Origin: Bacilli bacterium
GTDB lineage: Bacteria; Bacillota_I; Bacilli_A; RF39; UBA660
Length of the DNA: 64,000 nucleotides
Direction: 5' to 3'
Assembly (NCBI GenBank): GCA_016296185.1
Contig: JAEDJT010000003.1
Location: 7,125-71,124, forward strand
In this document: positions 11,714 to 18,930 of the stretch, one piece after another
Numbering within the stretch: the stretch's first letter is position 1
How the letters are laid out: the number at the start of each line of letters is the position of its first letter
Position numbers and translations under genes: made by a program
Notes under the pieces: generated by a model
Told to the model about the DNA's origin: nothing
Database searches by the model: none
What the model saw: the letters and a program-made list of their open reading frames with translations, nothing else

Positions 11714-13153
11714 TTATTTTAAAATATTCTTTAATATTATAGTTTTTGTTCTAGACATTTCTTTTAATGTAGACATAACACCTTCATTACCAATTCCAGA
11801 ATGTTTCCATCCACCAAATGGCATTTCAAATGATCTGAAGAATGATGCACCATTAATAATTGCTCCACCACATTCTAATTGATTTGCAACTTTAATAGCA
11901 TTATTAACATCTTTAGAAATGATTGAACCACATAATCCAAATGATGATTGATTTGCAATTTTAATTGCTTCATTTATATCATCGAATCCAATTATTGATA
12001 CTACTGGACCAAAGATTTCCATATCTTTAGCAACAGCCATGTTTTTAGTTACACCATCAATAATTGTTGGGTCAAAGAATGCTCCATCTCTTTTGCCACC
12101 GATAACAATTTTTGCACCTTCTGCAACTGTTTGATTAACTTGTTCTTCTACTCTTTTTGCAGCAGCTTCACTTATTAAACATCCTAATTGTGTTTCAGGA
12201 TCAGATGGCATTCCTCTTTTAATTTTTTCAATTCTATCTTTTAATTTTTTAATATATTCTTTTTTAACTGAATTGTGAATTAAGAAACGTTTTGATGCAC
12301 AACATACTTGTCCAGTATTATAGAATCTTCCCCAGATAGTTTCTTCAACAGCTAAATCGATGTCTCCGTCTCTATCTAAAATAAATGCATCATTTCCACC
12401 TAGTTCTAACATTACATGAGTTAAGTTAGCACTACATGTTTTCATTGTTTCCATTCCTGATTTAGTAGCTCCAGTTAAACTTACTAATGCTACTCCAGGA
12501 TTAGCAGCTAATGCTTGTGCAGCGTCTCCGCCTGTACCATTAATTACATTAATAGCACCTTCATCAACACCTGCTTCTAATAATAATTCAGCGTATTTGT
12601 TTAATGTTAATGGATTATGAGGAGATGGTTTCATTATAACTGAATTACCCATTAATAATGCTGGTGGGATTTTTTGACAGAATAAGTCACTTGGGAAATT
12701 GAAAGGAATAATTGCAACTACTACTCCTAATGGAGCTTGAACTGTATATTGTAAAGTATTTTCATTTCCTGCTTCTTGACCAGCCGGAACCATATTTCCA
12801 TATTCATGTTTTGCTTTTTCACAGAATGCTGGAATACCAATTGAAACGTTTGCGATTTCTCCATATGCTTCTGTTATTGGTTTACCAGTTTCATCGCTTA
12901 ATAATTTTGCTAATTCATCTTTATCACGTTCTACTAATGAAACGAATTTCATTAATATTTTTGCACGTTCATGTAAAGGTCTTTTAGCCCATATTTTTTG
13001 TCCTTTTTTCGCTGCTTGAACTGCTGCATCGCAATCTTTTACGCAAGTTTCAGGAACTGTATCTATAACTTCACCAGTTGCAGGATTAGTAATAGTTATT
13101 ACTTTTCCGTCTGATGAGTCTACCCATTTACTTCCTATTAAATTTTTAGCCAT
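11714..13153 (-). CDS. NAD(P)-dependent aldehyde dehydrogenase family protein
   Basis: ALDH blocks MLELGGNDAF (Glu active site), GQVCCASKR (Cys active site), FPSD, GxTxxG. Start moved to the ATG after AGGTGA, which overlaps the FIST stop. Confidence 0.85.
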   Translation of the reverse strand: MAKNLIGSKWVDSSDGKVITITNPATGEVIDTVPETCVKDCDAAVQAAKKGQKIWAKRPLHERAKILMKFVSLVERDKDELAKLLSDETGKPITEAYGEIANVSIGIPAFCEKAKHEYGNMVPAGQEAGNENTLQYTVQAPLGVVVAIIPFNFPSDLFCQKIPPALLMGNSVIMKPSPHNPLTLNKYAELLLEAGVDEGAINVINGTGGDAAQALAANPGVALVSLTGATKSGMETMKTCSANLTHVMLELGGNDAFILDRDGDIDLAVEETIWGRFYNTGQVCCASKRFLIHNSVKKEYIKKLKDRIEKIKRGMPSDPETQLGCLISEAAAKRVEEQVNQTVAEGAKIVIGGKRDGAFFDPTIIDGVTKNMAVAKDMEIFGPVVSIIGFDDINEAIKIANQSSFGLCGSIISKDVNNAIKVANQLECGGAIINGASFFRSFEMPFGGWKHSGIGNEGVMSTLKEMSRTKTIILKNILK

Positions 13154-13162
13154 TTTTTTCAC

Positions 13163-14320
13163 CTACTTTGAGAATGATGTGAATGATAAAGATAATCCTC
13201 CGATATTTGCACCTGAGTGATTTGCTTGACCATATTCACCAAATGTAAATGCTACGATGAATGGAATATCTCCTGCAGCATTTTTAATTGCTACGAAGTC
13301 TTCATCAATTCTATCGCCTATACATAATTTTCTTCCGCCACAATGAATCATAAATAATGCAGCTGGATCTATACCTTTTTTAGCTTCTTTAACTGCATCA
13401 ACAGCACCTTGGATTAATCCATCAACTGTATTTTCTAATTGAATAATAGCTGTTTTTTCTGCAACTTTTGCTCCAACATTGAATGAATAATCTGGGTTAC
13501 CAACCATTGGGTGACGTACACAAGTTAAATCACCTTGAACAGTTTTAACACCTAATGCATATGGAATAGATGCTACTAATAGGTTTTGTCCCATTAATTC
13601 ATCTGGATTCATGTTATTCCATTCAGCATATTTTTTAAGTGCTGGTACTCCATCGATTTCACAAATCTTACGATCATTTTCAACTTTAGTTACTATACCA
13701 ACTTTATTTGTTTCTTTATATGCACCTGTAAATACATTTTTTAAATCTTTTGTTGTATAGAAGAATGCTACAGCACATCCATCACCAAAACTCTTATCTT
13801 GGCAGAAGATTTTCCAATCTCCAACTACTGCGTCATCAGCTGCAGATCCACCAAACATTGGAACTTCACCAATTACATCTTGGATACCTTTTAAATAATA
13901 TTCTTCTTCAGCTGGTGATGCAAACATTGCAAATGCAACTGGAGCAAATTTCTTTCCAGCATCTTTCATTGCTTCTGTAGCAATTTTTACACCTGTAGCT
14001 CTTGGGTCTTCTCCTCTTGGAGATGAAGCTACACCTACTGTTAATTCATTATCATCTAATGTTAACATACCTGCGAATCCGTTTTCACCAGAAATAATTC
14101 CTTCTGGAGTCATGATTGCACCTGAAGATGTACATCCTAATACTTTAATGTCAGAATTAACAGATTTAATACCTTTAATTAATTCATCTTGGTTATATTT
14201 TACTGATGAAAATAATAAACCAACTTTTGGATTTTTAATTCCTTTTAATGCTCCTTTTGCTGTTTCAACGCCAGCTTCGAAGCTGTCAGCTAGAATACTT
14301 GATCCAACCATTGCTTTCAT
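13163..14320 (-). CDS. Stand-alone FIST (FIST_N + FIST_C) domain protein
   Basis: 385 aa with N-terminal ...GLLFSS...VLGCTSSGAI and C-terminal ...MIHCGGR...FTFGEYG pattern as I recall it for FIST proteins. SD GAGGAGG. Confidence 0.5.
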   Translation of the reverse strand: MKAMVGSSILADSFEAGVETAKGALKGIKNPKVGLLFSSVKYNQDELIKGIKSVNSDIKVLGCTSSGAIMTPEGIISGENGFAGMLTLDDNELTVGVASSPRGEDPRATGVKIATEAMKDAGKKFAPVAFAMFASPAEEEYYLKGIQDVIGEVPMFGGSAADDAVVGDWKIFCQDKSFGDGCAVAFFYTTKDLKNVFTGAYKETNKVGIVTKVENDRKICEIDGVPALKKYAEWNNMNPDELMGQNLLVASIPYALGVKTVQGDLTCVRHPMVGNPDYSFNVGAKVAEKTAIIQLENTVDGLIQGAVDAVKEAKKGIDPAALFMIHCGGRKLCIGDRIDEDFVAIKNAAGDIPFIVAFTFGEYGQANHSGANIGGLSLSFTSFSK

Positions 14321-14393
14321 AAATAATTCCTCCTCTTTATTCTTTAAAGCATTTTTACTTTAAAATGGATTATCTTATAATCCCTCTATGTTA

Positions 14394-14422
14394 ATTTTAT
14401 TACTTTTTTGTCTATTTTTCAA
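14394..14422 (-). promoter_or_regulatory. Promoter of the FIST-ALDH operon
   Basis: TTGAAA (14422..14417) - 17 nt - TAAAAT (14399..14394) on the minus strand, located downstream of the 14446..14476 terminator. Confidence 0.6.
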
Positions 14423-14445
14423 GGGGGGTATATTTAAAAAAAGGC

Positions 14446-14476
14446 ACAAAAAAAAGGAAATATTAATCATTTCCTT
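14446..14476 (-). terminator. Intrinsic terminator closing the large non-coding unit
   Basis: AAGGAAAU-GAUUAAU-AUUUCCUU 8-bp stem (14476..14454) immediately followed by U8 on the minus strand. Confidence 0.75.
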
Positions 14477-15519
14477 TCTAACAATTTATTAATTATCTTT
14501 GCGGAGATAATCATTTAATTGCTATTTGTTGCATTTGTACGTTTTTTTAAATTAACTCCCATATAGCAGAATGAATTTGACATACTATTTTGACAGTTTC
14601 ATAAATATGGTGACATCAATCATCCTATATTTCAAATACATACTACATTCACGTCTAACTATACTGTTGTATAAGAGTTCTCCAATTCATCGCTAAATTT
14701 TATTTATACGCGCACACACGATATAGCATATTGTGATTAACCTCATGGAAGCTAACCATGAAGAATTTCACTCAACATTTGGATTGCTTGATTCTCTTGC
14801 AAGACAAGTTTAAGACTCTCCAATTTTTAAACGCGGTCAGATTACTTTGTACCAATACACTTAACTTAAAATCCCAAAGTTTTCTTCTCTATATGCTATT
14901 TCACCAGAGAATGAAATCTAATTCAAAAAAGTCAGTTGTAGAAATACTCCATAAAATAACTATCAATGCATAACATACTTGCGACTATATTAACTTGTAA
15001 TATAATCTGGACTAGTATGAAAGCTATCCATCATTTTCATTACAATATTATCACTCATATTGAGAATGTTGAAAATGCTAACAACTAATAACACTATAAT
15101 GGCAGTCAGTACTCCAATTTCTTGAATAATGATCGATTGGTGATGAATTAAGAAACCAATCAACGATTAACTTTCAACGGCTAGAATTTATTTTTACATA
15201 AATCCTCTTCAGATGCATTTCTGCACTGGAACTTCTGCCTGGGGGCTTGGTGATGCAACACCAATATACAAATGTACTGCAAATACACATGTTACAGACA
15301 GACAATTACGTCACTTGCAATAACGTAAGCCACCTTTAAATAATTTTGCGGATTATTTATCAGTGAAGGTATGATAATCTTATACATATCATTTCACAAA
15401 ATGAAATATAAGTTTCCTTATATTTTCGCTATTTTTCAAGTTTATGCCCTATGAATATGTTCGTCATATATACCAGATACCGTCTCCAGTATACCTCCTT
15501 ACTATATTAAGTATATACT
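14446..15519 (-). ncRNA. Candidate very large (about 1.07 kb) structured non-coding RNA of unknown class; ends approximate
   Basis: Promoter-to-terminator unit with no ORF of 60 aa or more on its strand. G+C is far above other spacers. There are many local helices, several with G-U pairs valid only on the minus strand, a GAAA tetraloop hairpin and twin CCGCAA loops. Confidence 0.5.
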
Positions 15520-15553
15520 TTTTTAATTATATAGTCAATTGAAAATTTTACAA
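15510..15553 (-). promoter_or_regulatory. Candidate promoter(s) of the large ncRNA
   Basis: TTGTAA-16-TATAAT (15553..15526) overlapping TTGACT-17-TATACT (15538..15510) on the minus strand. Confidence 0.5.
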
Positions 15554-15557
15554 TTTA

Positions 15558-15586
15558 TTGATAATTTCAGAATGCTATGTTAATAT
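15558..15586 (+). promoter_or_regulatory. Promoter of the M3-like peptidase triplet, back-to-back with the ncRNA promoter
   Basis: TTGATA-17-TAATAT on the plus strand. The ORF-track ATG at 15587 abuts the -10 hexamer and lies upstream of the predicted transcription start. Confidence 0.55.
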
Positions 15587-15613
15587 ATGCAATTATCAAG
15601 GGAGTTTTGTGCT

Positions 15614-16771
15614 ATGAAAAAAATTAAATGGGATTTTGATACTATTTTAAATGATAGAAATGTATTAGTTGATATGGCAAACAATGAAGAAGATGTTGTA
15701 AAAAAATATCAATTAATGTCTGTCATCTCATTCTTAGATAATTACCATTTTATTAATTTATCAAAAGCAAAAGCTCCTAAACAGGACTTACATTCTAGGC
15801 TATATTACACCGCATCGGAAAGAGTTGGATACCAATCTGCATATTTCTTAGTTCATCAGTTTTATAACGACTTATTAGCTCTTCAACCTTTATTTGATGA
15901 TAACAAAAAACTACTAGGAAAAGTATTAGGATCGGAAGCTGATTTTACTAATAAACTTGGTCTACATATTTCAAATAAACAAGCATTTGCTGCTGTTGAA
16001 TCTTTTTATAATTCATTTGATTCTGAATTATTAGAATATTTTTATCCTACTTTTTTAGAAAAAGATAAACAAGTTAGATTTGTAAAAGATAATAATACTA
16101 AAGGCGCTGATTCTGAAAGTGATGGTTTTTGTTTCTTTGTTGGTGGTTTAAATAAAAATTATATTTCAGTAAATAATGAAAAATCACCATCTAAAGCTTA
16201 TAACTTAATTCACGAATTCGGTCATTCAATCGCTAACTTAATTAATCCTTTTTATTGTTATCAAGAAAGAACAACATTCTTCGGTGAAGTTCAATCTATG
16301 TTCCCAGAATTAGTTGCAATGTATGAAAATCCATTAGGTTTACCTGAAATAGAAAATCTTCATTTATTATATTGTAATTTATTAGCTAATTATCAAAATG
16401 CAAACTATCTTGTTATGCACGATTTAATTATTAATGAATGGGAAGATAATAAATATAGAATTAATATTCCTTTATATTTTAGATTAAAAAGAAAATATAA
16501 TATTGATAAATATGAATTATATAATTCTTTAAGTAAAAGTATTACAGACAGTGGTGAATATATTTTAAGCTTTGCTGTATGTTGTGAATTACTATATATT
16601 TATAAACAAGATAAAGCTAAAGCTTTAAAACTATTTAAACAAATATTAAACATTTCATCATATGGTAATGAATTATCTCAAGTATTAAGTATTATAAATA
16701 TAAACGAACATACTTTAGATATCTCTCAAGATATTTGTGAAAAACTTAATTTAGCTTTAAGAAAGATGTGA
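15614..16771 (+). CDS. Half-size M3 (PepF/oligoendopeptidase F-like) zinc metallopeptidase, paralogue 1
   Basis: HEFGH followed about 20 aa later by FFGEVQSMFPE (HExxH...E-x-x-S-x-x-x-E gluzincin pattern). Start at the ATG 15614 after AAGGGAG. Confidence 0.55.
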   Translation: MKKIKWDFDTILNDRNVLVDMANNEEDVVKKYQLMSVISFLDNYHFINLSKAKAPKQDLHSRLYYTASERVGYQSAYFLVHQFYNDLLALQPLFDDNKKLLGKVLGSEADFTNKLGLHISNKQAFAAVESFYNSFDSELLEYFYPTFLEKDKQVRFVKDNNTKGADSESDGFCFFVGGLNKNYISVNNEKSPSKAYNLIHEFGHSIANLINPFYCYQERTTFFGEVQSMFPELVAMYENPLGLPEIENLHLLYCNLLANYQNANYLVMHDLIINEWEDNKYRINIPLYFRLKRKYNIDKYELYNSLSKSITDSGEYILSFAVCCELLYIYKQDKAKALKLFKQILNISSYGNELSQVLSIININEHTLDISQDICEKLNLALRKM

Positions 16772-16775
16772 TAAT

Positions 16776-17897
16776 ATGCGTAAATGGGATAAAAAAACAT
16801 TAAATGAATTAAAAGATTATTATTCATTAATGTATGAGTATTCTTCTAATGATCCTTTTCAACAAAATGAATACTATAATACTATTTCTTCATTAAATTA
16901 TATTGCTAGTTTAAATACAGGATTACATATTGCTTTGCCATCTAAGGTTAAATATGTTGATGTTGTAAATAGTGATCTTGGTATATTATCAACTTATGGT
17001 CATTATTGCCCTATTCTTAGAACTATGCAACCTCATTATGATAATTATTATATAGGTAATTCTAACTTAAAAAATGTTAAAAGTGATCCAAAGAAATTAT
17101 TACAAGTTACTGATGATTTTTACGAAGATTTTTATGATACTATTACATTATCATATAGAGAAATCAGAAAATGGTTTGATACTAATATGATGTTTTTTAA
17201 TATATCTAAAGATAAAATATGTTCAGGCGAAACATATGGCGTATATGGAACTGGTATAAGTTTTTATAGTATTGGTATTGCTAATACTATACAGGATTAT
17301 ATTTCTGTTATACACGAAGCTGCTCATGGAATAAATAATAACGTTAATCCTAACATAATGTATGATCAAGAAAAATATTGTTTTATTGAAGCTGATGCAT
17401 TATTTATGGAATTAATAGGCGCTGATTTTGTTGCTAATTCTTTAAACGCTAAAAAAGAAATATTTAAATTAAAATTAGATACTTTAAAAGATTATTTATA
17501 TTCATGCGATGTAATATGTACTAAGATGGACATGTATAATGAATTATCAAAAAATGATAAATATAATAAAAAAGAAGCAATTTCATTTTTAAAAAATGGA
17601 TTAGGTTGTGATAAACAATACATTAAAGATGTTACTGAAACATATATTAGTGAATTATTTCATTACATCATTTCATATTTAACAGCTATAGAGTTATATC
17701 AATTATATAAAACTGATCCTGATGCTGCTATCATTCATTATATTCAAATTAGAGATATTAAAGGTTTATCTAATGTAGAATACTTGGAATATGTTAGAAG
17801 TCTTGGAATTAACCCTGGAGAAAATTTAGAGGCTTATATTTCTAGTTTATTAAAAATTGATAAAGAAAAAAAACTTATTTATGAAAAAAAGATATAG
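16776..17897 (+). CDS. Half-size M3-like zinc metallopeptidase, paralogue 2
   Basis: HEAAH ... FIEADALFMEL. N- and C-terminal blocks are colinear with paralogues 1 and 3. It starts 5 nt after the stop of paralogue 1. Confidence 0.5.
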   Translation: MRKWDKKTLNELKDYYSLMYEYSSNDPFQQNEYYNTISSLNYIASLNTGLHIALPSKVKYVDVVNSDLGILSTYGHYCPILRTMQPHYDNYYIGNSNLKNVKSDPKKLLQVTDDFYEDFYDTITLSYREIRKWFDTNMMFFNISKDKICSGETYGVYGTGISFYSIGIANTIQDYISVIHEAAHGINNNVNPNIMYDQEKYCFIEADALFMELIGADFVANSLNAKKEIFKLKLDTLKDYLYSCDVICTKMDMYNELSKNDKYNKKEAISFLKNGLGCDKQYIKDVTETYISELFHYIISYLTAIELYQLYKTDPDAAIIHYIQIRDIKGLSNVEYLEYVRSLGINPGENLEAYISSLLKIDKEKKLIYEKKI

Positions 17898-18930
17898 CAT
17901 TGATTTAGAATATATAAAAGAATTAAAAGAGTTAATGGTTATGTGTAATTCTGATCAATTAGATATTGATAGAATAACTAATTTAATAGATAGATTAAGC
18001 AATGGTTTTAATCAAGATGAAACAAATGATACTTTATCAAATATCAGAAACAATTCTGAATATTATACTGATTTTAAAGAGTTATATAAAGCTATTAGAC
18101 TATTCGTATCACGTGGAATATTTATAGATTCTATACCTGAACCTTCTTATAAAGAAATGATTATTTCTGATGATGATTCTATAACTCTTGCTCATGATTT
18201 TTATAAAGAACAAGGTAATTTCTTCTTAGACGGTTTTAATGATTTTAAATCTGATATGAATGATCATTTAGAGTTTATTGAACCTAATGATTATACTGAT
18301 GGTGAAATACATTTTTATAAATCAAGTGGTGATGCTTTTTTATTTACACCTGATCACAAAAATTTTACTAAAGTTAGTATTTTAATTCATGAACTTGAAC
18401 ATGTTATTGATTGTTTTAATAATCATGATTTTTATGAAAATCTATTAATAAGAGAAATATCCGCTGTATTTATGGAAATGATAGGTCTTGATTATTTAGC
18501 TAATGTATTCAAATTAGAAGATGCTCATTACATCAGAAGATTTACTCTTCACAGTATTGTAAAATCAGATGCTTATAATGCTTACTACAAAAATCAATTA
18601 TTATATCTAACTAACAAATATAAAGATTTAGATGATCAAAAATTACGCAAGTTATTAGTTAGTAAATTCGGAATGTCTAATGGATTTATTAATTTTTGCA
18701 ATAGTTATAATCTTTATCAAGATTATTATTATCAGTTAGCGCAATTAGTTTCTATAGAATTATATAAAATATATAATAACGACAAGGAGAAAGCTTTATT
18801 CGTCTTAAAAGACATTATTATGAATGGAACTGATGATAATATATTTAATATATTAAAAAAACATAATATTGTTTTAGTATCAAATGTAGTTAATTATGAA
18901 AATGATATGTGTTTAAAATTAGGCATTTAA
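17881..18930 (+). CDS. Half-size M3-like zinc metallopeptidase, paralogue 3
   Basis: HELEH ... IREISAVFMEM. The start is uncertain (ATG 17881 overlaps the paralogue 2 stop by 17 nt; TTG 17857 is the alternative) and no clear SD is present. Confidence 0.5.
   Translation: MKKRYSIDLEYIKELKELMVMCNSDQLDIDRITNLIDRLSNGFNQDETNDTLSNIRNNSEYYTDFKELYKAIRLFVSRGIFIDSIPEPSYKEMIISDDDSITLAHDFYKEQGNFFLDGFNDFKSDMNDHLEFIEPNDYTDGEIHFYKSSGDAFLFTPDHKNFTKVSILIHELEHVIDCFNNHDFYENLLIREISAVFMEMIGLDYLANVFKLEDAHYIRRFTLHSIVKSDAYNAYYKNQLLYLTNKYKDLDDQKLRKLLVSKFGMSNGFINFCNSYNLYQDYYYQLAQLVSIELYKIYNNDKEKALFVLKDIIMNGTDDNIFNILKKHNIVLVSNVVNYENDMCLKLGI

Follow-up and report, generated by a model that had tools for sequence, protein, structure and literature searches.

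A large structured non-coding RNA, very probably of a new class, encoded upstream of FIST genes in uncultured gut Bacilli

Analysis of a 64,000-nt stretch of DNA from a Bacilli bacterium (assembly GCA_016296185.1, contig JAEDJT010000003.1, positions 7,125 to 71,124 of the forward strand; hereafter 'the window') indicates that window positions 15503..14448, read on the minus strand, very probably encode an independently transcribed, structured non-coding RNA (ncRNA) of a new class. An earlier note, made from the letters of the window alone, had proposed a promoter-to-terminator unit without an open reading frame (ORF) at 14446..15519 and had read it as a candidate very large structured ncRNA; the RNA that we derive, ~1,056 nt in length, lies close to the bounds of that unit. 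All coordinates below are window positions unless a locus is named, and all features of the RNA and its flanking promoters are on the minus strand.

The results that carry this conclusion come from covariation. We aligned 38 distinct full-length homologous sequences, 63-76% identical to the window, and obtained 206 base pairs in 33 helices, one pseudoknot included. Standard pairs are formed in 96.3% of alignment cells, vs. 34-46% when the 3' partner is slid by 1-3 columns; pairs with compensatory double changes number 114 of 206, vs. 43-60 in the slid alignments; and cells with double changes number 850, vs. 132-196. None of 500 column shuffles reached any of the observed measures. A 16-sequence set agrees, and RNAalifold, applied to 16 sequences, returned 229 pairs, 111 of them with compensatory double changes. 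It is because the shared identity is only 63-76% that as many as 114 base pairs carry compensatory changes. The fold is also specific to one strand: read on the minus strand 96.4% of cells are canonical pairs, vs. 82.6% when the same cells are read from the plus strand, the lower figure arising because 14.7% are G-U. We conclude that the RNA is read from the minus strand, as the earlier note had argued from G-U pairs in three helices, and the orientation of the promoter and of the terminator agrees.

Evidence on coding content points the same way. The ORF-free gap extends over 1,266 nt (14321..15586), from the start of the FIST gene at 14320 (minus strand) to the ATG of the next gene at 15587 or 15614 (plus strand), and is the longest ORF-free stretch of the window, the runner-up having 323 nt and containing a tRNA. 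The longest ORF in the gap, on the strand opposite to the RNA, has 71 aa (78 codons stop to stop), and no frame in the gap exceeds 104 codons when TGA or TAG is read as sense, so that the unit is, as proposed, without an ORF of appreciable size. On the RNA strand of the 38 homologues the longest stop-free stretches span 37-79 codons, on the opposite strand 42-95 codons, and they are not in register. Six-frame translations gave no Pfam match at E<=1, and the protein remnant that would mark a decayed gene was thus not found. Public gene calls of the loci that were looked up place no gene under the RNA, barring a 59-aa ORF in L074 and antisense ORFs of 117-217 aa, judged spurious, on a repeat insert (L059, L062-64, L069). 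The G+C-rich signature that the earlier note had seen in the gap stands in one comparison and falls in another: G+C content is 30.9% for the RNA vs. 25.1% for the window and 13-21% for plain spacers, and the FIST/ALDH coding DNA beside the RNA, at 30-39%, is as G+C-rich as the RNA, so that the contrast is with spacers and not with all coding DNA.

To place the ends of the transcript we relied on conservation. A scan located all three promoter-like sites listed in the earlier note (TTGTAA-16-TATAAT, 15553..15526; TTGACT-17-TATACT, 15538..15510; TTGAAA-17-TAAAAT, 14422..14394). Promoter-like sites in the stretch show no excess over shuffled sequence (16 vs. 13.8 +/- 3.8), and a promoter match alone is therefore no evidence. 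However, the -35 hexamer TTGACT (15533..15538) is kept as TTGAC[T/A] wherever an aligned homologue extends that far upstream, and the -10 hexamer TATACT (15510..15515), separated from it by a 17-nt spacer, is near-invariant (TATACT or TATAAT); because this pair is conserved in homologues, we take it to be the real promoter of the RNA. Since TTGTAA-16-TATAAT, the other promoter proposed for the unit, is not conserved, the start is placed at ~15503, in keeping with a predicted start 6-8 nt downstream of the -10 hexamer. At the 3' end, the strong terminator that the earlier note had described is present and covaries in homologues: an intrinsic terminator (14448..14478; helix 33, 97% paired, double changes in 6/8 pairs) comprises a 9-bp stem (14477..14469 / 14461..14453), a 7-nt loop and a U-run. 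A consensus scanner missed this terminator because the stem is A/U-rich, with only two G-C pairs. The T-run follows the stem in most homologues and is interrupted in L017/L050. The predicted primary transcript accordingly spans 14448..15503, with ends, taken from promoter and terminator, that are good to within a few nt; the nhmmer profile covers 15510..14445 and has its sole copy in the window there.

Past the terminator, a -10 box, usually with a -35 element, is found in each locus inspected; in the window this is the TTGAAA-17-TAAAAT promoter of the downstream FIST-ALDH operon (14394..14422), which lies outside the RNA. The conserved promoter and terminator, the separate promoter of the downstream gene and the presence in many genomes of genes inserted between the RNA and FIST bear out the claim that the unit is independent. 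On the sequence evidence we take it for a gene in its own right, not a leader.

The RNA belongs to a conserved family. We used the FIST protein to fetch related loci, one genome per species, and obtained 19 loci of uncultured gut Bacilli (labelled Candidatus Coprovivens, uncultured Bacilli/Tenericutes/Erysipelotrichaceae and similar). A search with nhmmer and the gap sequence alone matched 15 of the 19 genome loci over ~1 kb, with E-values of 1e-72 to 1e-135, two of them with a FIST protein only 62-64% identical to that of the window; a 16th match (L013) is at a contig end only, and with a profile the E-values go down to 1e-280. A 25-nt pattern taken from the most conserved block retrieved 33 metagenome contigs (rumen, human gut and other sources), all 33 of which are homologues by profile search, 28 essentially full-length and 5 truncated where the contig stops; viral contigs yielded nothing to this pattern. 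Twelve further look-ups with FIST proteins (61-94% identity) added 23 loci, nearly all of which carry the RNA, whole or as a 3' part that abuts a contig end; the remainder are short contigs or near-identical copies that are not listed. In all, homologues are present in ~70 of the loci fetched, of which ~50 are distinct; these are all from uncultured Bacilli and all have the RNA between dus and FIST. The length of the RNA ranges from 845 to 1,649 nt and is typically ~1,000-1,080 nt. The strong conservation that the earlier note had asked of related genomes and of gut and rumen metagenomes is thus observed.

The RNA is more conserved than silent positions of the gene beside it. Identity to the window is 65-76% for the RNA vs. 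42-64% for fourfold-degenerate FIST sites and is higher for the RNA in 11/11 comparisons, which argues for purifying selection on the RNA sequence; for L015 and L018 identity is 70% for the RNA vs. 66-69% for FIST coding DNA. Distant FIST homologues (L016 and L019, 38-44% identity) stand in another context, without the RNA. The boundary of the family would therefore lie between 44% and 58% FIST identity, an interval that the FIST homologue listing, comprising the best 120 proteins, all of at least 59% identity, does not narrow. Within the present sampling, the RNA occurs in a single family-level clade of uncultured Bacilli from gut and rumen.

The same RNA matches no known family. With the 4,227 covariance models of Rfam 15 at the gathering threshold, the window yields only three tRNAs, all elsewhere, and seven homologous loci (100 kb) yield tRNAs only; no gathering score is reached for OLE, ROOL, GOLLD, HEARO, raiA or the other models, and there is no Rfam match to group I or group II introns, RNase P, tmRNA or rRNA. 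At E<=10 the region gives seven scattered matches, all with E>=0.6 and with 15-24 bits vs. gathering scores of 43-100, and two divergent homologues give no recurring family. ARAGORN reports no tRNA or tmRNA in 14300..15700, and blastn at distant sensitivity reports no match in plasmid and phage collections. No earlier description turned up in a literature search that covered Coprovivens, the sequence blocks kept across the family and newly described classes of large or ornate RNA. We conclude that the RNA belongs to no family in Rfam; the earlier note had seen no hallmarks of RNase P, tmRNA, rRNA or group II domain V. Of the refuting conditions set out in the earlier note, all those that sequence comparison could address were decided in favor of its reading.

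The fold comprises two large domains, with a long-range helix at the base of each, and counts at least 33 helices and one pseudoknot. The 5' end is single-stranded for ~10 nt and carries an AAGGAGG sequence. It is followed by P1, the long-range helix that closes a 5' domain of ~310 nt (5' strand, 15479..15490; 3' strand, 15170..15181); RNAduplex finds P1, at 10-14 bp, in 38/38 sequences, with many different sequences, and in the 16-sequence alignment double changes occur in 6/6 of its pairs. Within the 5' domain lie, in order, a sub-domain of two nested helices around invariant GCAUAAACUUGA (15384..15460; helices 1-2, 6/8 pairs covary; missing in L001); a hairpin with the conserved loop CCGCAAA, which contains GCAA (15338..15358; stem variants GAUAG/CUAUC, GUUAAG/CUUAGC and AAAUAAU/AUUAUUU, compared by eye and uncounted); a hairpin formed by helix 4 (15306..15328; double changes in 7/7 pairs); a three-way sub-domain with invariant ACAUGU...AUUUGUAUA (15236..15300; helices 5-7, double changes in 14/19 pairs, 97-100% paired); and two hairpins that flank invariant CUGAAGAG (15183..15228; one of them helix 8, whose loop in the window is GAAA, the other helices 9-10; double changes in 16/18 pairs).

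Between the two domains, the hairpin formed by helix 11 (15127..15169; 9/12 pairs covary) presents loop bases 15147..15141, UUCAUCA, for pseudoknot formation with UGAUGGA at 15027..15033; this pairing, helix 12, emerged from a covariation scan (96.2% paired, double changes in 4/7 pairs). A short hairpin separates the helix 11 hairpin from a long hairpin with an invariant UUAGCAUUUUC loop region (15038..15101; helices 14-16, double changes in 16/22 pairs). The 3' domain is closed by helix 17, in which GGCUUUCAUA (15016..15025) pairs with UAUGGGAGUU (14554..14563) at a distance of ~460 nt; helix 17 is 98.9% paired, and its pair 625:1111 is A-U in 27 sequences and G-C in 10. Inside this domain are a variable arm with the loop motif GGUGAAAUAG (14864..14932; helices 20-21, 18/19 pairs covary), the most conserved core, a multi-helix junction (14651..14834; helices 22-30), and a 3' arm (14570..14624; helices 31-32, double changes in 4/10 pairs, 93-95% paired). 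The core contains invariant runs of 9-20 nt, among them GUCUUAAACUUG, AAGCAAUCCAA, CUAUAUCG, UUAGCGAUGAAUUGGAGAA and UAUACAACAGUAUAGUU, and was the source of the 25-nt search pattern. Beyond helix 17 follow a conserved 3' tail, UUAAUUU..AAAACGUACAAAUGCA (14530..14553), which ends in AAAUGCA and for which candidate partners show no covariation, and a lineage-variable hairpin ahead of the terminator (14492..14511), which has the loop CCGCAA in the window and is missing from many homologues.

Local helices proposed in the earlier note can be compared with this consensus. Six of them coincide with tested helices (15164..15132, 15228..15210 with its GAAA loop, 15264..15247, 15328..15306, 14760..14744 and 14917..14898), and that at 15077..15032 is contained in the long hairpin 15101..15038, which covaries; the helix at 15007..14983 lies in a variable stretch outside the tested consensus, with differences that look compensatory by eye only and are uncounted. 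Several candidate pairings were rejected. RNAalifold paired the AUGC of the 3' tail with G[U/C]AU near the 5' end or with the GCA of the CCGCAAA loop, and neither pairing was accepted, each being invariant, 3-4 bp in length and without covariation. A small local hairpin after the Shine-Dalgarno (SD)-like sequence (GGUAU..GUAUC) was dropped in favor of P1, which is present in 38/38 sequences; a helix of columns 386-392 of the 38-sequence alignment with the terminator T-run is an A/U-run artefact; and a helix of columns 624-628 with 667-671 competes with the better-supported helix 17. Separately, GNRA-type GCAA loops occur in three hairpins (CCGCAAA, 15351..15345; UUGCAAG, in the region of 15317..15312; CCGCAA, 14504..14499, in the lineage-specific hairpin) and are candidate tertiary-contact or protein-binding sites.

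Natural size variants distinguish a core from dispensable parts. Most members have a single arm and an RNA of ~1,000-1,080 nt. In L053-55 (L053:3053-3897) the variable arm is absent and the RNA has 845 nt; in L001 (8168-9089, ~922 nt) the 5' sub-domain and the CCGCAAA hairpin are absent, with promoter, SD-like sequence and P1 retained; and L060 (3014-3935, 922 nt) is also shortened. Together these natural deletion variants outline a minimal core. At the opposite extreme, the arm is expanded in L056, L059, L062-64 and L067 into a tandem array of 10-13 modules, giving RNAs of 1,422-1,649 nt (L062:2272-3894, L056:2243-3891, L067:2292-3892, L059:2462-3883), with the insertion site corresponding to 14932..14864, and L069 carries an insert at the same arm position. 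The module, ~44 nt in length (some 76-89 nt), consists of two small GNRA-type hairpins and conserved GGUGAAAUAG and UGGAUACAUAA, and its multiplication points to a binding module for a putative partner. On the sequences compared, the variable arm is a peripheral module.

The 5'-terminal sequence suggests how such an RNA might be stabilized. Neither a conserved start codon nor an ORF follows the SD-like AAGGAGG, which occupies nt ~4-10 of the RNA (15494..15500) and can pair at every position with the 3' end of 16S rRNA. GGAGG is kept in 37/38 aligned sequences, the exception, L022, having GGAGA, and L001 retains it despite deletion of the adjoining sub-domain; in the window this is the only orphan AAGGAGG that is preceded by a -10 box. 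An SD-like sequence near the 5' end with no start codon following is the sequence signature of a STAB-SD-type stabilizer, as in the cry3A STAB-SD of Bacillus thuringiensis, to which the 30S subunit binds without starting translation, so blocking RNase J1 (PMC4113751). The likeness is that both are SD-like elements near a 5' end without translation initiation; the difference is that the cry3A element is in an mRNA leader, whereas the element described here would protect an ncRNA. By analogy, then, the AAGGAGG would bind the 16S rRNA 3' end in the 30S subunit and so shield the RNA from RNase J-type 5'-to-3' decay. The mRNAs of this lineage begin alike, with a -10 box, ~6 nt, and AUAG..AGGAGG. 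The FIST-ALDH leader (14394..14340, and its counterparts in L007-L012 and L017) has an SD-like AUAGAGGGA / AAUAAGGAGG after the -10 box and then a hairpin GGAUU..AAUCC, the true SD following ~50-60 nt further on. This leader may carry a STAB-SD-like 5' module of its own, and 5'-end protection may be lineage-wide.

A palindromic loop in the core suggests how copies of the RNA might associate. The palindrome UCUUGCAAGA (14795..14804), in a loop closed by helix 24 (14808..14805 / 14790..14787), is a candidate symmetric kissing-loop site. A palindrome of at least 8 nt is kept in 64/64 loop instances, which comprise 18 distinct loop sequences and vary in the rest of the loop, and it takes six forms (UCUUGCAAGA, CUUGCAAG, CUUCGAAG, UUUCGAAA, UUUUCGAAAA and UUUUGCAAAA). 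Among these the central bases switch from GC to CG, and since the switched bases are adjacent they cannot form an intramolecular pair. Folding of the isolated loop gives no consistent intramolecular hairpin, and the self-duplex is favored by 6.7-11 kcal/mol. For GOLLD a loop palindrome with a central GC/CG switch has been taken as support for a symmetric intermolecular kissing loop (PMC12286853). By the same analogy, the palindromic core loop would pair with its counterpart in another molecule, giving dimers or higher homo-oligomers.

According to the mechanism that we propose, the RNA would act in trans as a stable architectural scaffold or RNA-protein particle, not as a messenger or leader, with the 5' stabilizer and the self-association just described and with the arm units GGUGAAAUAG / UGGAUACAUAA, multiplied 10-13 times in some lineages, as binding sites for a putative partner. 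The trans-acting, self-associating scaffold taken by itself we offer tentatively, with somewhat more doubt than belief. The statement as a whole, a large ncRNA gene of a new class whose product is a trans-acting scaffold with a 5' stabilizer and self-association, we consider on balance probable. That the RNA constitutes the largest class of ornate bacterial RNAs (typically 1.0-1.1 kb, at most 1.65 kb), chromosomal and of housekeeping type in a Bacilli lineage with reduced genomes, self-assembling into RNA-only homo-oligomers via a palindromic kissing loop and recruiting the 30S subunit or another partner via its 5' SD-like sequence and its repeat-expandable arm, is a bolder proposal, which we regard as rather unlikely.

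With a length of more than 500 nt, a non-coding sequence, covarying helices and invariant junctions, the RNA has the features of the descriptive group 'large ornate bacterial ncRNAs', which is not a homologous family; because the models of that group do not match, it is not a member of OLE, ROOL or GOLLD. ROOL, like the RNA described here, is a large ornate RNA of rumen and gut, including reduced-genome Bacilli and Mollicutes-like organisms, and has multiple pseudoknots. It is, however, ~580 nt in length and associated with phages or prophages near tRNA genes, in contrast to the present RNA, which is not phage- or prophage-associated and which the ROOL model does not match. CsrB/RsmZ share tandem hairpin modules with purine-rich motifs, as in the expanded arms of L056, L059, L062-64 and L067, but such sponges consist almost wholly of repeats, whereas in the present RNA they are inserted, in some members only, into a single arm of a large, unique fold, with a GGUGAAAUAG / UGGAUACAUAA motif that presumably differs from the CsrA consensus. 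GOLLD is likewise a very large ncRNA with a covariation-supported fold and a hypervariable internal region, and the palindrome switches between GC and CG in both; GOLLD, however, is phage- or prophage-encoded, often near tRNA islands, whereas the RNA described here is chromosomal, between dus and FIST. The largest members of OLE, ROOL and GOLLD exceed 800 nt, and GOLLD is cited at ~800 nt (PMC12286853), which agrees with the supposition of the earlier note that the RNA of the window, predicted at ~1,056 nt, is larger than GOLLD; the family spans 845-1,649 nt. OLE is, like our RNA, a chromosomal, housekeeping-like, large structured RNA of anaerobic Bacillota; its dimer is held by symmetric contacts, a palindromic kissing loop among them, and it has been linked to ribosomal protein bS21 (PMC12286853, PMC12054373). 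OLE differs in being ~600 nt in length and widespread in Bacillota, vs. ~1,056 nt and one family-level clade. No OLE-associated gene was recognized among dus, the peptidase-like (pep) paralogues, the lipoproteins, FIST, ALDH and NrdD, and no search was aimed at oapA/B/C. RNA-only homo-oligomers held by symmetric kissing loops have been observed for OLE, ROOL and GOLLD by cryo-electron microscopy (cryo-EM; PMC12286853).

The order of dus, RNA and FIST is constant, and the genes around the RNA are not. The FIST gene of the window (13163..14320, minus strand) has Pfam domains FIST_N and FIST_C. Upstream of the RNA stands dus directly, or 1-3 divergently oriented paralogues of ~360-450 aa. In the window there are three tandem distant paralogues (15587..18930, plus strand; 394, 373 and 357 aa), the first with an HEFGH zinc-protease-like motif (HEXXH); they are 22-40% identical to counterparts in other genomes and have no Pfam match, and their copy number, 0-3 between genomes, marks a variable insertion between dus and the RNA. 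Between the terminator and FIST, many genomes have 1-3 small lipoprotein genes of ~150-180 aa (including L014:1102-2036, L024:6487-6972, L039:6947-8564 and L042:1287-2220), whose products have a signal peptide, a lipobox (L-x-x-C-G) and acidic, cysteine-containing bodies, and L005 has an unrelated 358-aa gene there. On this comparison of sequences, the flanks of the RNA are a hotspot of gene gain and loss. The ALDH gene (11714..13162) is missing where FIST is ~58-68% identical to that of the window (L015, L018, L024, L028, L030, L038, L051, L053, L056), FIST then being followed directly by an NrdD-like gene of ~775 aa; thus the FIST-ALDH pairing is not universal, and the RNA-FIST order is. A 780-aa flanking gene resembles anaerobic ribonucleotide reductase NrdD in sequence, and its equivalents in related loci carry ATP-cone and NRDD Pfam domains. 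The genes that flank the RNA give no functional clue.

The alternatives to a trans-acting RNA of a new class can now be weighed. That the RNA is a giant cis-acting leader, sensing a signal and using its terminator as an attenuator of read-through into FIST-ALDH or the lipoprotein genes, would account for its presence upstream of FIST, in the same orientation, in every locus, and its constant position there leaves room for a cis role; in some loci, moreover, the next gene begins only ~35-60 nt past the T-run, behind a promoter with a weak -35 element. Yet the terminator is strong and constitutive-looking (8-11 bp and 7-9 U) and conserved by covariation; no conserved anti-terminator alternative is apparent, and the unconserved linker of 0 to ~90 nt that joins the conserved body to the terminator would suit a precise anti-terminator switch poorly; a promoter follows the terminator in each locus inspected; the downstream gene varies between genomes (FIST, lipoproteins, the 358-aa protein); Rfam gives no match to a riboswitch, T-box or leader family; and we know of no leader 1 kb long with more than 30 helices. 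We therefore regard a leader as improbable. A protein sponge or assembly platform like CsrB/RsmZ, in which repeated motifs bind an RNA-binding protein and the fold serves as a frame, is suggested by the 10-13-module arm arrays with GGUGAAAUAG and UGGAUACAUAA, by the insert in L069 and by the three window hairpins with related GCAA-containing loops. However, most members have 0-1 module copy, L053-55 lack the arm, and no candidate protein is consistently encoded beside the RNA; with so few copies in most members, a sponge role leaves the invariant core unexplained, and we consider it unlikely, if slightly less so than a leader.

A ribozyme, in which the invariant junction nucleotides form an active site, would fit the size of the RNA, its long-range helices and pseudoknot and the long stretches of its core that are invariant and unpaired; features of this kind have been described as in line with the hypothesis that OLE RNAs are probably ribozymes (PMC11332333). 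Against this stand the lack of any match to group I or II introns, RNase P or self-cleaving families, a locus context that suggests no substrate or chemistry, and the finding that catalysis has so far not been demonstrated for OLE, ROOL or GOLLD (PMC12286853); being single-copy and syntenic, the RNA is not a mobile intron. A catalytic role, then, seems to us no more probable than a leader. Two further explanations deny that there is an ncRNA at all, and both strike us as extremely improbable. One is that the region is a decayed or unconventional coding region, be it a pseudogene, an alternative code or a small-protein mRNA, to which the perfect AAGGAGG at the 5' end and the 71-aa ORF on the opposite strand would lend some color. 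It has to contend with the negative Pfam comparison, the short and unregistered stop-free stretches and the failure of recoding to open a frame, and also with the lack of a conserved start codon after the SD and with substitutions that follow the logic of base pairing and not that of codons. The other is that a conserved DNA element, or the remnant of a mobile element or intron, was mistaken for an RNA, an idea encouraged by neighbor genes that come and go (pep paralogues, lipoproteins). But the G-U pairs that are kept, and that would be A-C on the other strand, imply a strand-specific constraint at the RNA level; promoter and terminator frame the element exactly; it has one copy in the window and constant synteny; and it has no match in plasmids, phages or viral contigs.

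Several points weigh against the interpretation of the RNA as a new-class, trans-acting scaffold with a 5' stabilizer and self-association. The thermodynamic signal (minimum-free-energy z-score of -2.97 for the RNA strand vs. -2.10 for the other strand) speaks for the RNA, but by itself it is modest and far weaker than the covariation. No protein partner has been identified. The SD-like sequence resembles ordinary mRNA leaders of the lineage and could be an inherited promoter/SD cassette; as the mRNAs of the lineage begin in the same way, the 5' cassette of the RNA may be generic. Only the GC-to-CG change tells a kissing loop from the rival structure, a 2-3-bp hairpin that closes a UGCA/UCGA loop, for changes of C..G to U..A fit both models; as that one informative change could go back to a single event in evolution, the case for the kissing loop is suggestive and not proof. 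There is one synteny (dus ... RNA ... FIST) in one lineage, such that a link to the downstream operon is possible and comparative genomics cannot separate function from context. Finally, the ends, abundance and stability of the transcript are predictions from sequence only, and all sequences come from metagenomes or metagenome-assembled genomes.

To our knowledge only a handful of bacterial ncRNAs other than rRNAs and introns exceed 500 nt, and OLE, GOLLD and ROOL are each structurally unprecedented. The RNA described here, unrelated to these three, has comparative evidence of unusual strength behind it: it provides ~50 distinct sequences, and its deletion (845 nt) and expansion (1.65 kb) variants separate core from peripheral parts. 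It is a tractable target for cryo-EM and biochemistry, which would test whether RNA-only self-assembly is general in large bacterial RNAs. Its presence also shows that uncultured Bacilli of animal guts, with their small genomes, maintain a costly RNA gene of 1 kb. If the boldest reading given above is true, the 'RNA nanostructure' phenomenon of OLE, ROOL and GOLLD gains a fourth, unrelated, non-phage class.

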